The position numbers and the translations under genes were made by a program. Shown piece after piece: positions 7,185-61,652 of a DNA stretch of 64,000 bases. Numbering within the stretch: the first letter of the stretch is position 1; the number at the start of each line of letters is the position of its first letter. Under the pieces are notes generated by a model that worked only from the letters and a program-made list of their open reading frames with translations, was not told the origin of the DNA and did not search any database. This DNA is from a virus: the IMG/VR virus record IMGVR_UViG_3300009509_000008, positions 24,032-88,031 of that record; one strand, given 5' to 3'.

Positions 7185-8641
7185 TACACGTCGTACTCCT
7201 CATCGTCGTCGATGTCGTCTTCGAGCTCGATATCGTCAAAGTCACTTTCGTGCTCCTTCAATATCTTTTTCAGCTTGCCCTGCTTCTTCTTACGCTCTTC
7301 TCCAAGAGAGCCGGGCGTCTTACCGCTGACTCCCTGGGGTGGTCCCTTGCGTCGATCTGCTCGCTTGATCCATCCGCCCCACTTCCACGAGGTTGACGGG
7401 ATGACCAGCAGGTCAAATCCGTCGGTCTTGATCTCACGAGCACCAGCTATCCAGGCTGAGAGGCTGACACGTCCTTGGTCGTCAGTTCCGTTCTTGACTA
7501 TCTTCAGACCAAGGTCAGCCTCTTGACCGGCCGCATCAGTGTAGGAGATGTCCTCCATCCCCTCAATGGCATCGTCGCCTTTGTCTCGGTTCTTTTGCGT
7601 TATGCCTATGATTGGAACCTGTAGTCGCTGAGCAGCGTGCTTCAGGTCCTGTGTGATCGCCGCTTGGACTTCCCACTTCATCGAGCGCCTTCCAGTGCGG
7701 TCGTCCCTCATTCTGTAGAACGAGTCTGCGATGATGAGGTGCGGCTCGAACTGCTCGGCCTTTGCAATGAGATGCCCTACCCCGCCACCAGCTGGGTCCT
7801 CCTTGTCGGATGTGATCAGGAATGACCTCTTGTGGGTCTTGGTGGCATTCTTCTTCTCTTCCGCCTTGAGATACTTCAACCGCTTGAAGTACGCCTGCCT
7901 TTGCTCCTTTGGCAGCTTTGCCCGACGCAGCTGGTCATAGTCCAGGTTGCACAATGTAGCTGCGACCCGTCGACGCAGTTGCTCTGGCGACATCTCACAG
8001 GAGTAAAACATCACCCGGCGGTTTCCGACCTCGTAGGCGTGTGTGGCGATCTTGATGCCGACCCACGTCTTCATCGACTTGAGCCGGCCGTAGAGGACAA
8101 TGAACTCTTCGGGGAGCATGCCCTGGGTTTGGATGTTCAGCTCCTCCCAGGGCCAGGGCACCCCAAGGATACCCTTGGCCTTCGCTATGCGCTTGTACTC
8201 GCTGATGAGCTCCCCGGCTGACTCAGCCAGGATGACATCCCGGCTGTGCGGCACCATGATCTGTGCCTCTATCAGCTTCGCCCGCATCAGTGCTATGGCC
8301 TCATATGGACCGTCGCCCTCGAGCACCTGTGAGATCTCCTCGAGAGAGTTTCCGATCTTTCGAGTCATCGACTTCTTTCGGAGAATCTCACAGAGCTCGG
8401 CGACGGACTCTCGGCTCTTTGGATATTCAAACGACGGAAAGCGCTCCTTCATCCATCTTCGAGTTGGAGTCTTTCCAAAGTGGGCTCCGTCGTTGTAGTA
8501 CTCACGGATGGCCTTGAACATCTGTCGGGTATCGGCAGATTTGAACATAGAGATCGTGATCCGAGCCTTCTGCACAGATCTGAAGTTCCCAGTTCTTACG
8601 ATCTTTGCGATGAGCCTATGTTCAACATTCATCGGGCTCAC
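7184..8641 (-). CDS. dnaB: DnaB-like SF4 replicative helicase
   Basis: GVPWPWEELN..TQG, GRLKSMKT, SCEMS, IIADSFY, LKHAAQRLQVPIIGITQKNR; start may be 8632. Confidence 0.9.
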   Translation of the reverse strand: MSPMNVEHRLIAKIVRTGNFRSVQKARITISMFKSADTRQMFKAIREYYNDGAHFGKTPTRRWMKERFPSFEYPKSRESVAELCEILRKKSMTRKIGNSLEEISQVLEGDGPYEAIALMRAKLIEAQIMVPHSRDVILAESAGELISEYKRIAKAKGILGVPWPWEELNIQTQGMLPEEFIVLYGRLKSMKTWVGIKIATHAYEVGNRRVMFYSCEMSPEQLRRRVAATLCNLDYDQLRRAKLPKEQRQAYFKRLKYLKAEEKKNATKTHKRSFLITSDKEDPAGGGVGHLIAKAEQFEPHLIIADSFYRMRDDRTGRRSMKWEVQAAITQDLKHAAQRLQVPIIGITQKNRDKGDDAIEGMEDISYTDAAGQEADLGLKIVKNGTDDQGRVSLSAWIAGAREIKTDGFDLLVIPSTSWKWGGWIKRADRRKGPPQGVSGKTPGSLGEERKKKQGKLKKILKEHESDFDDIELEDDIDDDEEYDV

Positions 8642-8957
8642 CCACCGGGGTTACCCTGACGAGGTTGCCTTTGAACAACACAGACGGTCTTCCGTCGGGC
8701 AGTGTCACCGACAACGTCCACTTCCCAACCTTGTCTAGAACGCAACTCTGTATGCGCTCAGCGTTCACATCGATGACTGTGACTGCTCGGCCGACGTATG
8801 ACATCAGCTCTCGTGTATCGACTTTCGATCCTAGTAACTCGTGGAGCTGACGTAGCTCCTTGGCCTGCTCTGCTACTCGCTCTTCGAGGAACTGAATCCT
8901 CTTGTTCGTGCGAGACGAACCCTGTGGGCGTGGTGGCCCATCGTTCCGTTTACCCAT
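8622..8957 (-). CDS. coiled-coil + Sm/Hfq-like domain protein
   Basis: RBS GGAGGT before ATG 8957; C-half VTVIDVNAERIQSCVLDKVGKWTLSVTLPDGRPSVLFKGNLVRVTP aligns by eye with the Hfq core. Confidence 0.55.
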   Translation of the reverse strand: MGKRNDGPPRPQGSSRTNKRIQFLEERVAEQAKELRQLHELLGSKVDTRELMSYVGRAVTVIDVNAERIQSCVLDKVGKWTLSVTLPDGRPSVLFKGNLVRVTPVGEPDEC

Positions 8958-32529: not shown

Positions 32530-32991
32530 GTGATGGAAAACAAGCCACACGTCAGCGAGGATCGGAAGAAAGAGCTCTTCCGAAAGATGGGCATAGACGA
32601 AGTCGGTGGAACGGCAGCGGTAGATCTCAAGGTGTTTGAGATCGGTCACCTTCACACGGAGTATATCTGTGATGAGGGTGACCTGCTCATGCACTTCTTC
32701 TGGAGAAAGCCGCCACCGAAGGGAGCACCACCGGTCCGTGACCCAGGAAACGGAATGCCGCTGCAGGACAACTATGCTCCGTGGCCTCACGGATTCCGAG
32801 AGAGGCTGTGGTCTAGCACACTCGAGACGTTCAAGCTCATGGATGAGAAGCATCGAGTCGAGCTCGAGTGGATCTCTGAGTTCCAGAGCTGGTGTGTCTT
32901 CGTCAGAGGCGTCGCCAAGATCATCACCCCTCCTCAGCCCATGCTCGTCAAGCTTGCTACAGAGTCTATTGGACCAGAGCTCGATAACTAG
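32530..32991 (+). CDS. hypothetical protein
   Basis: RBS GAGGAG. Confidence 0.65.
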   Translation: MMENKPHVSEDRKKELFRKMGIDEVGGTAAVDLKVFEIGHLHTEYICDEGDLLMHFFWRKPPPKGAPPVRDPGNGMPLQDNYAPWPHGFRERLWSSTLETFKLMDEKHRVELEWISEFQSWCVFVRGVAKIITPPQPMLVKLATESIGPELDN

Positions 32992-33028
32992 CTAAGAAGA
33001 ATGCCAGGTGGTGGGACTTAGTCCTGGC
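32991..33028 (-). terminator. hairpin + TTCTTCTTAGC
   Basis: GCCAGG-N14-CCTGGC then ATTCTTCTTAGC. Confidence 0.5.
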
Positions 33029-37074: not shown

Positions 37075-37127
37075 TTTATCCTCCCTGGCCAGGGTTTATG
37101 GGGGGCGTAATTGCCCCGAATCACACT

Positions 37128-37142
37128 CAAAAATCTTATGCC
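37128..37142 (-). promoter_or_regulatory. putative phage promoter (ATAAG class)
   Basis: GGCATAAGATTTTTG. Confidence 0.6.
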
Positions 37143-58263: not shown

Positions 58264-58289
58264 GGTAAAAAGCCCGTCACTGCGGCTCC
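58264..58289 (-). ncRNA. candidate ~26-nt RNA
   Basis: GGGATAAGATCTAC^G promoter motif (58289-58303) followed directly by an AGCC..GGCT hairpin and TTTTACC. Confidence 0.4.
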
Positions 58290-58313
58290 GTAGATCTTAT
58301 CCCCAAAGAATTA

Positions 58314-58832: not shown

Positions 58833-59071
58833 CCGGTCCTCTCAGCCAGCCTTCGGTACATCCAGGCGATTCCCTCTGGGTCTGCCTCGGCCTTGAGCTC
58901 CATGCGTGTGCGGTGTTGCTCGACGAGCACCTGGATGAGCTCTGTGATGGTGAAGCGCTTCCCGGTCTTCTCACGAAGTCGGGTAAGCTCCTGGTCAAGG
59001 AAGCGTGCCTGTCTCGCTGGTAGGTGCAGCACGATCTTCCGGGTCTGCTTGAAGTCATTGGTATATGCCAT
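58829..59071 (-). CDS. ribbon-helix-helix-like small protein
   Basis: RKIVLHLPARQARFL...TITELIQVLVE. Confidence 0.5.
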   Translation of the reverse strand: MAYTNDFKQTRKIVLHLPARQARFLDQELTRLREKTGKRFTITELIQVLVEQHRTRMELKAEADPEGIAWMYRRLAERTG

Positions 59072-59621
59072 GATCCCACTCTATGTAGCAGTCGGCCACT
59101 CTTCTGGCCTCCGGCTGTGGTCTGCTCTCCAGCACCTCTGTACGCCGCTCCTTCAGATCCTCACGAATCATGTCGGCTGGGATGCCATAGAAGACAAAGC
59201 TCTCAACCTTGCGATCGAGGTACTCATCTGTTGCTCTACCTGGCCACACGATCATCCACGCCTGATCTGCAGTGGACTCGAAGTAGGATCGCCACTTGTC
59301 GCTGATCAGATACTGCAGCTCCATCCATGTGCGGAGAAACTGGAGGACGTGGGTGAGCTCGTGTAGGACTACTGGGGTGACCTCCATGTCCATTGACCAG
59401 CCACGATCCTTTCCGACGTAGATGGTGCTGCCGATCGTGGTGATGTAGTCATTCATGAACCTCTCCTTCGAGAAGTCTACGACCTTCATCTTGGTCAGAA
59501 CTGATAGTGCCCAGGCTATGATCTGCATAAGCAGAGAGGATTCCTTGTCCCGCACTTTGATGGGGGTGACCGTCTCGGAGAAGTGCACCAAGAACGGCTT
59601 GCGGACCTCACGGTAAGGCAT
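59055..59621 (-). CDS. HEXXH zincin-like protein
   Basis: TTIGSTIY...VLHELTHVLQ...FE; RBS AGGAGGT; TGCTACAAT upstream. Confidence 0.7.
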   Translation of the reverse strand: MPYREVRKPFLVHFSETVTPIKVRDKESSLLMQIIAWALSVLTKMKVVDFSKERFMNDYITTIGSTIYVGKDRGWSMDMEVTPVVLHELTHVLQFLRTWMELQYLISDKWRSYFESTADQAWMIVWPGRATDEYLDRKVESFVFYGIPADMIREDLKERRTEVLESRPQPEARRVADCYIEWDHGIYQ

Positions 59622-59648
59622 GGATCACCTCCTACCTCATTGTAGCAG

Positions 59649-59731
59649 GCTAAGAAGAAAAAAGAGCGTCGGACTCACTCTCCCCTGCTGGGGCCCCCAA
59701 CCTCGAGCATTTCCTGACTTCGGACTTCCGC
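59649..59731 (-). ncRNA. candidate ~83-nt small RNA
   Basis: GTCATAAGATCTTT^G promoter motif (59731-59745); ends AGAGTG-N7-CGCTCT + TTTTTCTTCTTAGC; no credible ORF. Confidence 0.5.
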
Positions 59732-59762
59732 AAAGATCTTATGACGAATTCCCCCCGTTTTT

Positions 59763-59960
59763 TCATTCGGAGTTCACGATGTCGTTGAAGCGCTTCTTCC
59801 TCTCCTTATTTCTCAGCAGCTCCTCATACGCATCGATTGCCGCTTTGCAGAATTCCTCCATGTTGGAGGCTCCGTGGATTACCAGGCCGGCATTGGTCTT
59901 TCCCTGGCTTAGTAATGAAACGAAGCACGTATCCTCTTTCACAATGAATATGCGCTTCAT
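59763..59960 (-). CDS. small hypothetical protein
   Basis: RBS GAGGTG. Confidence 0.55.
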   Translation of the reverse strand: MKRIFIVKEDTCFVSLLSQGKTNAGLVIHGASNMEEFCKAAIDAYEELLRNKERKKRFNDIVNSE

Positions 59961-59972
59961 CTGACCACCTCA

Positions 59973-60338
59973 TCATTGGATCTCCTCATTGTCATCGAAC
60001 CCCTCGTCCTCTACCCCCTTTGTTCCCTTGAAGAGACAGCCAGTGTGTACCTCCCTGATGAGCGCCTGAGCTATGTCGATCTTGAACTGCTCAACCTGCC
60101 TTCTGGTTCTCACGTCTTCTCTCAGTTTGTTGATCGTTCTTCTCAGTCGTCTCTTCACTTCGTTCCCAGACATGTACCACTCCAGCCGATCCTCCTCTGT
60201 GTGGAGGAACACCTCGAGGTTTCCGTTGCTGAGTCCGATGTGAAAGGCAGGACAGAGGTCGCAATGTACGGTAGGATCTACCTGTGCTATCAATTTCGCC
60301 AGTGACTGCTTACTCACTGCCACCTCCCCAAGGAACAT
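59973..60338 (-). CDS. hypothetical protein (CxxC)
   Basis: HCDLCP; the start may be internal, after GGGAGG. Confidence 0.55.
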   Translation of the reverse strand: MFLGEVAVSKQSLAKLIAQVDPTVHCDLCPAFHIGLSNGNLEVFLHTEEDRLEWYMSGNEVKRRLRRTINKLREDVRTRRQVEQFKIDIAQALIREVHTGCLFKGTKGVEDEGFDDNEEIQ

Positions 60339-60388
60339 CGTGGTCTTTGAGAGCTACAATCGATCGATCACAATACCAACACCCTGTT

Positions 60389-60403
60389 GGTATAAGGACT
60401 GTG
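60389..60403 (+). promoter_or_regulatory. putative phage promoter (ATAAG class) inside an inverted repeat
   Basis: GGTATAAGGACTGTG. Confidence 0.55.
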
Positions 60404-60777: not shown

Positions 60778-60866
60778 CTGAAGTGATCTAAGAACGATCC
60801 GAATTGCAAAATGATCGATCAACGGAGTCACTCCCCGGACCACATAACCAACCCAAGGAGAGGACT

Positions 60867-61652
60867 ATGACACATCCGGCCGATGCGCTGCGAGAACAGT
60901 TGGCGAAGAGATCAGCAGCATCGAAACAAGAGCAGGCGGGTGAGAAAGCTCCGGCTGAATCCGCCTCAACCGCAACCACGAGCACCAAGGAGGAGACAGT
61001 GCCCACCACAAAGTCCGAGGTCAAGAAGGCCAAGGACCCGAAGAAGGCCAAGGCCGCAAAGGCCCCGGCGAAGAAGAAGAAGGCCCCCGCCAAGAAGGCT
61101 GCCGCAAAGGCAGGGAAGGCGCCGGCCAAGAAGAAGGGCGCCAAGTCGAAGAGCAACGGGAAGCCTGCGCCGGCGAAGAAAGCGAAAGCTCCGGCGAAGA
61201 AGGCTACCAAGGCCAAGGTCGCCAAGCCCAAGGCCAAGGTTGCCAAGAAGTCGACCAAGGCGGCCAGCAAGTCGAACGGGAAGAGCAACGGTGCGTCCAA
61301 AAAGTCGGTGGATGCGAGCAGCTTCGATCGAGATGGAGACGGCCTTCGTCCGATCGAGAAAGATGTCATCGGCGCCATCGCCAAGAACGACGAACCGACG
61401 AGCATAGTGGGCCTGGCCCGCAGGATGTTCGGAGAGAACTGCGGTTCCGAGGGAGCCAACTCGGTGAGGACAATCAGGAATGCCATTCGTGTTCCCGTGC
61501 GCTGTGGCATCCTCGAGTCCGGCGGCCGAGGCAAGATCAAGGTCACCACGGCCTACAAGAGGGCCAAAGGCGATCTGAGCAAGCTCATGATGAACTACAG
61601 GTCTCGCCAGAAGAAGGCGAGGGCCAAAGCCCAAGCAGAGGCCTCTGCCTGA
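60867..61652 (+). CDS. histone H1-like (PAKK-repeat) protein with C-terminal winged-helix-like domain
   Basis: RBS AAGGAG; long K/A/P repeat (KAPAKKK...) then a globular domain. Confidence 0.75.
   Translation: MTHPADALREQLAKRSAASKQEQAGEKAPAESASTATTSTKEETVPTTKSEVKKAKDPKKAKAAKAPAKKKKAPAKKAAAKAGKAPAKKKGAKSKSNGKPAPAKKAKAPAKKATKAKVAKPKAKVAKKSTKAASKSNGKSNGASKKSVDASSFDRDGDGLRPIEKDVIGAIAKNDEPTSIVGLARRMFGENCGSEGANSVRTIRNAIRVPVRCGILESGGRGKIKVTTAYKRAKGDLSKLMMNYRSRQKKARAKAQAEASA

Follow-up and report, generated by a model that had tools for sequence, protein, structure and literature searches.

A conserved non-coding promoter-to-terminator unit upstream of a small phage operon as a candidate termination checkpoint

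To our knowledge, very few non-coding regulators have been described in uncultured large phages. Described systems that bear on such an element include small RNA (sRNA) genes of the DapZ/MicL type, which lie at the 3' ends of operons and have their own promoter and a terminator in common with the mRNA, and decoys of the CsrB/RsmZ type, whose many GGA motifs are exposed in loops. Switches between a terminator and an antiterminator are found in the PyrR, trp and T-box leaders, and the 6S RNA of lambda is the short PR'-tR' transcript of a lambdoid phage. For Shiga toxin (Stx) phages, it is reported that PR' fires constantly and that transcription stops at tR' just downstream, the short RNA being processed to a 74-nucleotide (nt) Hfq-binding sRNA (StxS), so that cis and trans roles coexist (PMC7547250). 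Here we analyse a window of 64,000 nt, bases 24032-88031 of the 88-kb virus record IMGVR_UViG_3300009509_000008, a record that holds ~48% of its genome according to a completeness estimate. The subject is a gene-less unit (unit 1) that runs from a promoter-like motif (P1) to a terminator-like end (T1) in the spacer ahead of a small leftward operon. Phage sRNAs, attenuators and promoter-proximal terminator checkpoints are known kinds of element, and this one matches no described family.

The genes around the spacer are read leftward, in the order 121-amino-acid (aa), 65-aa, spacer, 188-aa, 80-aa and 172-aa; the last three form an operon that extends leftward to 58314. The parts of unit 1 are as follows.

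59622-59762, read on the minus strand: the studied spacer, 141 nt between the 65-aa and 188-aa genes.
59734-59745, minus strand: P1, GTCATAAGATCT at 59745-59734, with the -10-like hexamer CATAAG at 59743-59738 and no -35.
59663-59681, minus strand: the T1 hairpin, AGAGUG (59681-59676), loop AGUCCGA (59675-59669) and CGCUCU (59668-59663).
59649-59662, minus strand: the U-rich tail, ending in TTCTTAGC (59656-59649).

The 188-aa protein has 7 homologues in the protein collection, at 60-75% identity, and a search with the alignment of this protein returned at least one close locus. This locus, L004, lies on a metagenome contig where the gene order is the same. All comparisons rest on the window against L004, plus near-identical strains. 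The spacer is identical to L004 at 117 of 135 positions (86.7%), as against 65-74% DNA identity in the five genes that flank it. In four flanking genes, the four-fold degenerate sites agree at 37/133 positions (27.8%; Fisher p=1.6e-23 versus the spacer), and neutral sites are therefore saturated between the two sequences by this measure. When 60-column windows were slid along the 4.7-kb alignment, which has an overall identity of 0.64, the five best (0.87-0.90) all fell within 59632-59741. Eleven of the 12 bases of P1 are the same in L004, and the conserved block starts ~5 nt upstream of CATAAG; the 17 nt from the A-run at the stop codon of the 65-aa gene to that point have diverged, and at the other side conservation reaches the ribosome binding site (RBS) of the 188-aa gene. 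From 59731 to 59663 the window differs from L004 by six substitutions and two single-base indels. From these data we conclude that the two-genome comparison has shown a non-coding element of ~120 nt under very strong purifying selection. A stretch with 87% identity amid randomised silent sites can be put forward with confidence as a candidate functional RNA or control element. The conservation is strong as read from the alignment, and the mechanism set out below is a proposal.

Other sources of related sequence added little. Among viral contigs the same alignment search returned two distant loci (L002 and L003, 33-38% identity) with unrelated upstream regions, the 188-aa protein used alone found no related locus there, and its alignment had no match in genome contigs. 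DNA patterns drawn from the element had 0 matches in viral contigs and 0 in genome contigs. A 17-mer from the element had 3 matches (L005-L007), which were rejected as all belonging to one unrelated coding sequence, and neither blastn nor tblastn found a match among GenBank phages. Four DNA runs, each from a different study, yielded contigs that are 99+% identical to the window, with patchy cover whose holes carry no meaning. The sole polymorphism within the unit in these contigs is 59684 C>A (plus strand), found in two runs; it is the allele that L004 carries, at a position that is unpaired in both predicted folds described below. No RNA run was listed for the stretch, which speaks neither for nor against expression, and the one RNA run from the same study contains almost none of its words.

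Two open reading frames (ORFs) run through the unit on the coding strand of the operon.

59650-59766, minus strand: a 38-codon ORF that spans the whole unit, its ATG overlapping the TGA of the 65-aa gene (ATGA); not a gene.
59675-59710, minus strand: an 11-codon ORF from ATG at 59710 to TGA at 59675; not a gene.

A first-pass annotation of this DNA had reported the 11-codon ORF, without a properly spaced RBS, as the only one. It is present and it has no RBS, but the 38-codon ORF had been overlooked. The 38-codon frame begins with the same ATG in L004, stops after 3 codons and is shifted by two 1-nt indels, and the start codon of the 11-codon ORF is changed from ATG to GCG. Neither ORF is preceded by an RBS. 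Because both are destroyed in L004, the unit is non-coding as judged by comparison. No tRNA or tmRNA was found in the window.

Both ends of the unit belong to families of motifs that recur in this phage. GNNATAAGNNNT matches the window 8 times (2.67 expected), a count reached by 1 of 100 shuffles, and seven of the eight matches are intergenic. Over the 88-kb record, 10 of 54 occurrences of ATAAG lie in DNA that a rough gene map assigns to no gene, 3.9% of the total (odds ratio 5.7, p=3.7e-5). Divergent intergenic regions are informative on this point because a promoter must exist there, and ATAAG is present in four of the five in the window. P1 belongs to the ATAAG set of the phage, since it matches GNNATAAGNNNT, is non-coding and has a same-strand unit ahead of it. 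TTYTTASC likewise has 8 matches in the window compared to 2.22 expected, a count that none of 100 shuffles reached, and in five of the eight cases it follows a hairpin that ends a leftward unit; 59656-59649 is one of these hairpin-TTYTTASC ends. The 11-mer TTCTTCTTAGC occurs in identical form after the hairpins of two unit ends (32991-33001 and 59649-59659, minus strand). The pair of motifs brackets complete leftward cassettes from 20911 to 20494, from 34447 to 32991 and from 37142 to 36325. From their distribution we infer that the GNNATAAGNNNT/ATAAG motif is a promoter and the TTYTTASC unit end a terminator. In unit 1 the P1 motif and the tail are ~80 nt apart, and the hairpin begins ~50 nt past GTCATAAGATCT.

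A second unit of the same design closes the operon at its far end.

58264-58303, minus strand: unit 2, GGGATAAGATCT, then 8 nt on a hairpin, a U-run and TTTTTACC, directly 3' of the 172-aa stop codon.

Unit 2 is conserved in L004 (5300-5345), where, by our reading, one hairpin pair is changed from C-G to U-A, and it is among the top conserved 60-nt windows. The 9-mer ATAAGATCT is found at both ends of the 188/80/172-aa operon. Units 1 and 2 and the recurrent motifs offer a concrete way into the question of how transcription units are delimited in such phages.

Several further observations concern the promoter-like motifs. An A-run, TGAAAAAAC (59757-59766, minus strand), lies directly 3' of the stop codon of the 65-aa gene and is kept in L004 as TGAAAAAAT; the presumed start of the unit is ~25-30 nt downstream of this A-run, which might be an A-tract element of P1. 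The heptamer A-AAA-AAC was considered as a frameshift site and rejected, as it comes 3' of the stop codon. Another ATAAG-headed 5' leader, GGCATAAGATTT (37075-37135, minus strand), has two hairpins, GGGGC/GCCCC and CCCUGG/CCAGGG, the second of which covers the Shine-Dalgarno sequence of the 210-aa gene; leftward units may commonly have structured leaders in which the RBS is masked. At 60373-60393, in a divergent intergenic region, a perfect 8-bp inverted repeat (ATACCAAC-N5-GTTGGTAT) overlaps a rightward GGTATAAG and a leftward TGGTATTGT promoter-like site. L004 has both of its arms but a different spacer between them; the repeat resembles an operator common to two divergent promoters.

The predicted RNA of unit 1 has three further structural parts upstream of the T1 hairpin.

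59719-59732, minus strand: the 5' segment of the presumed RNA, UGCGGAAGUCCGAA, with a first copy of AGTCCGA at 59726-59720.
59705-59718, minus strand: the 5' strands of an alternative helix, GUC-A-GGA (59718-59712) and UGCUC (59709-59705), from the RNAalifold consensus.
59687-59701, minus strand: the central hairpin, GUUGGG-GGC-CCCAGC, which is in every predicted fold of both sequences and is invariant in L004.

The T1 stem, as drawn by hand, has 6 pairs (3 G-C and 1 G-U, the latter conserved) and a 7-nt loop, followed by UUUUUCUU. Its segment is weak (-9.4 kcal/mol in the window and -5.1 in L004). The alternative helix excludes this hairpin: GUC-A-GGA pairs with UCC-GAC (59673-59668), which takes in the terminator loop and one base, the first, of the 3' arm, and UGCUC pairs with GAGUG (59680-59676), which is the terminator 5' arm, the whole enclosing the central hairpin. 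The 5' segment can form either a small CGG/CCG hairpin or a 5' hairpin of GCG/UGC and UCC/GGA, and the latter would sequester the 5' strands that the alternative helix needs. As had been noted earlier, AGTCCGA occurs twice, in the 5' segment and as the terminator loop (59675-59669). The first copy loses a G in L004 (G59725, in a loop), the sole difference in this segment. In the window the predicted energies of the two forms are about equal, -22.1 to -23.4 kcal/mol for the terminator form and -21.2 to -21.8 for the alternative, and L004 favours the alternative (-22.5 vs -16.9 kcal/mol). In both sequences a transcript that has reached the terminator loop, before the 3' arm, folds into the alternative form.

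The differences from L004 are compatible with both folds. In the terminator hairpin G59678>A is matched by C59666>U (G-C to A-U), and in the alternative helix the same change is compensated by C59707>U, while U59709>C replaces a U-G pair by C-G. The small 5' hairpin (GCG/UGC and UCC/GGA) also survives C59707>U and U59709>C. Positions 59710 and 59684, like 59725 and 59702, where a base is deleted, are unpaired in both folds, and all six substitutions of the RNA body are thus tolerated by either. When six substitutions were placed at random, both folds were spared in 3.5% of 100,000 trials, and each fold alone in 12.6% and 10.6%, a result that is suggestive only and partly circular for the alternative fold. 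Several of the conserved pairs are G-U and therefore fit an RNA of the minus strand, not a DNA palindrome. Taken as pairing evidence, the pair-preserving substitutions and the conserved G-U pairs point to a minus-strand RNA.

The following features lie around the unit and between T1 and the 188-aa gene.

59973-60338, minus strand: the 121-aa gene, upstream leftward pair with the 65-aa gene.
59763-59960, minus strand: the 65-aa gene, last of the upstream pair; T1 is the first terminator-like element 3' of it.
59639-59647, minus strand: the P2 candidate, TGCTACAAT, a promoter-like sequence of the extended -10 type, 18 nt upstream of the 188-aa ATG.
59628-59649, minus strand: a predicted hairpin, CCU-G-CUAC / GUAG-G-AGG, which overlaps P2 and would mask the 188-aa Shine-Dalgarno sequence.
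59055-59621, minus strand: the 188-aa gene, with a HExxH motif and the RBS GGAGGTGA, heading the 188/80/172-aa operon.

The U-run ends 35 nt upstream of the 188-aa ATG, on the same strand. The sequence after it can be read in two ways, as the extended -10 promoter P2 or as the 5' arm of the hairpin over the Shine-Dalgarno sequence. TTAGCC-TGCTACAAT-G(A/G)GGTAG is kept in L004, P2 itself being identical. TGNTANNNT is not enriched in the window (39 matches, 43.4 expected), and by our reading 8 of the 39 are in non-coding DNA ahead of genes. The hairpin has 7 pairs according to RNAalifold, and all seven are kept in L004, one through a change from U-A to U-G.

The reading that we favour, to which we give a probability of roughly 0.4, is that the promoter-to-terminator unit has a chiefly cis role, serving the 188/80/172-aa operon as a termination checkpoint (leader). 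Transcription would start a few bases past CATAAG, at about 59732-59730, and the nascent RNA would first fold the central hairpin. It would then take either the long-range helix (GUCAGGA/UCCGAC and UGCUC/GAGUG) or the small 5' hairpin together with the terminator AGAGUG/CGCUCU and its U-run. A stop at the U-run of T1 would give a discrete RNA of ~70-82 nt, and read-through would lead into the 188-aa gene, whose RBS could additionally be covered by the conserved hairpin. The balance between stopping and read-through would be set by the competing helices or by some other factor. The T1 hairpin and U-run would also end the upstream 121/65-aa transcript. The terminated by-product could act in trans as well, by analogy with what PR'-tR' yields in Stx phages; if it does, it would be a checkpoint by-product turned regulator outside the lambdoid phages. 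Since the terminator lies 35 nt upstream of an ATG on the same strand and has a competing helix, a leader or checkpoint is at least as likely as a trans-acting sRNA; the first-pass annotation had left such a cis role out of account.

The proposed checkpoint resembles PR'-tR' of lambdoid and Stx phages in its layout, a candidate promoter with a putative intrinsic terminator close behind it and same-strand genes beyond, and in a predicted short RNA that would be a checkpoint by-product able to act as an sRNA. It differs in that the promoter is of the phage's own ATAAG type, in that three small genes of unassigned function lie behind it rather than late or lysis genes, and in that a second promoter-like element stands between terminator and gene. 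The Q antiterminator, Q-binding element and sigma-dependent pause are features of PR'-tR'; no search aimed at these was made here. With attenuators and riboswitch leaders the unit shares predicted mutually exclusive helices that use the same terminator 5' arm, a small 5' hairpin that could serve as an anti-antiterminator, and a position directly upstream of a gene. Unlike them, it matches no Rfam aptamer or leader family and has no conserved leader peptide, and its alternative helix may itself reach the U-run. Like the sRNA genes of the DapZ/MicL type, it has a candidate promoter near the last stop codon of an operon and a putative terminator common to the upstream mRNA, although here the promoter-like motif lies just past the stop codon and not inside the coding sequence.

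A number of results weigh against the checkpoint. The first-pass annotation had described an ATAAG promoter and a hairpin-U-rich-TTAGC terminator enclosing ~83 nt; the motifs are real, recurrent and ~80 nt apart, but a rule-based scanner for sigma-70 promoters and intrinsic terminators made no call in the spacer or in L004. No same-strand gene follows unit 2 for ~20 kb, despite the same promoter-then-terminator design, which therefore needs no gene to control. The conserved TGCTACAAT could drive the operon alone, making a leader unnecessary. As for the structure, the alternative fold is partly derived from the same two sequences; with two sequences covariation is without statistical power, and a shuffle control reached the observed value in 248-250 of 500 cases. 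The fold is not more stable than that of shuffled sequence (z +1.0 and +1.08 in the window, -0.82 in L004). In addition, further pairs could carry the alternative helix up to the U-run (GAA/UUC in L004), and it might itself terminate transcription rather than prevent termination. No effector was found either: a leader peptide is excluded, no aptamer family matches, and none of six nearby or suggested proteins was identified as an RNA-binding protein. Pfam and PHROGs assign no function to the neighbouring proteins, in which no RNA-binding or antiterminator domain is recognisable, and an Atlas search started from the 65-aa protein had no usable result.

The unit could instead be an autonomous trans-acting sRNA, a reading that we rate only a little below the checkpoint. 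The P1-T1 RNA of ~80 nt, with a free 5' end, a structured body and a U-tail, would then act on host or phage mRNAs or on a protein, T1 would be common to it and the upstream mRNA, and the operon would be driven only by P2, which is identical in L004. As the motif pair brackets complete leftward cassettes elsewhere, a transcript from P1 should end at T1, and with unit 2 there is an example of the design that has no gene downstream. The near-total conservation of bases despite saturated neutral sites suggests sequence-specific contacts and not the fold alone, and the long hairpin of L004 runs directly into the U-run, as is typical of an sRNA 3' end; the terminator hairpin of T1, on the other hand, is weak. 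The first-pass annotation had proposed an sRNA acting as an antisense regulator or as a protein decoy. A non-coding, conserved and pairing-compatible minus-strand RNA is what we find, and neither of the two roles gained support. No antisense target was found in the 88-kb record, ~48% of the genome: the longest word shared with, or complementary to, the rest of the record is 11 nt, about the chance level, with none of at least 12 nt, and no start region stands out among 91, the best duplex being equalled by 32% of shuffled RNAs.

With Hfq-binding sRNAs and CsrB/RsmZ decoys the unit has in common a 3' hairpin with a U-rich tail and three conserved GGA motifs. The three GGA that had been reported are present (59728-26, 59714-12 and 59683-81), and all three are kept in L004; this number in ~84 nt is close to expectation, which by our own arithmetic is ~1.4 from base composition. 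Unlike the motifs of a CsrA-type decoy they are few, and none is in a hairpin loop; they lie in or beside stems, in both predicted folds within stems or internal loops, and no seed-target pair was found in the record. The protein encoded at 8622-8957, which had been proposed for electrophoretic mobility shift assays alongside CsrA, belongs to no family in Pfam or PHROGs. A comparison with Rfam 15, another of the checks that had been suggested, gave 0 matches in the whole window at gathering scores; with E values up to 10, the region 59500-59900 had three chance-level matches only, all on the plus strand (E 3.9-8.6, 5-12 bits against thresholds of 50-80).

It is improbable, in our estimate, that the spacer is a DNA-level control region without RNA function. 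It would then hold the terminator of the upstream pair, two promoters of the operon (ATAAG and extended -10), which the phage and host polymerases might use at different stages, and protein sites. Strong conservation with few compensatory changes fits protein-DNA contacts, an 11-bp palindrome (TGGGG-G-CCCCA, 59699-59689) is a possible protein site, and the inverted repeat at 60373-60393 on divergent promoters shows that operator-like sites exist in the phage. Yet three helices contain conserved G-U pairs, which read as A-C mismatches from the opposite strand and make no sense in DNA palindromes, the observed substitutions preserve pairs, and the conserved block runs from the -10-like motif through the transcribed part.

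Less probable still is that the unit is part of a private transcription code, consisting of the ATAAG promoters and hairpin-TTYTTASC ends, of the phage's putative single-chain RNA polymerase, with an RNA dedicated to regulating that enzyme or the hand-over from host to phage polymerase. The RNA might bind the polymerase, as put or 6S RNA does, or decide whether a polymerase that started at P1 ignores T1. If true, this would explain the near-fixed bases and the second gene-less unit that closes the same operon. We found nothing specific in the literature on promoters of single-chain phage polymerases, and a term search of the Arash phage paper turned up no promoter or terminator data.

It is very unlikely that the unit is an empty or decayed cassette, in which an ORF has been lost and its promoter and terminator persist with no present function. 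The leftward units do resemble cassettes, and the 38-codon ORF is still open in this phage. The first-pass annotation had named a remnant of a deleted ORF as the outcome that would speak against an sRNA, but a remnant should diverge like the four-fold sites, and the spacer is the best-conserved stretch where neutral sites are saturated; a decaying remnant is therefore ruled out, and an empty cassette strongly disfavoured. A small protein has next to no probability: the ATGA overlap with the 65-aa stop would allow translational coupling of the 38-aa ORF, but this frame and the 11-aa ORF are both refuted as conserved genes by L004, and both are without an RBS.

Two proteins of the region deserve mention. 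A lysine/alanine-rich, histone-H1-like low-complexity protein of 282 aa (TTG start) is encoded at 60804-61652 on the plus strand, and at 1975-2874 on the minus strand of L004; the protein, which occurs in both phages, has a conserved C-terminal domain and no Pfam or PHROG match. The 188-aa protein matches PHROG 13834 (E 1.2e-7), a PHROG of unknown function, and has a sub-threshold match (E 0.02) to an extracellular contractile injection system (eCIS) core/DUF4157-type domain. Its AlphaFold model is confident (predicted local distance difference test, pLDDT, 88.8). Compared with solved structures in the PDB, the model had no match at E<=0.001, and the top rows, at E 1-2, included the VgrG2b metallopeptidase domain. 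The HExxH motif (LHELTHVLQ) is invariant in 9 aligned homologues, and from its sequence this may be a small metallopeptidase-like protein.

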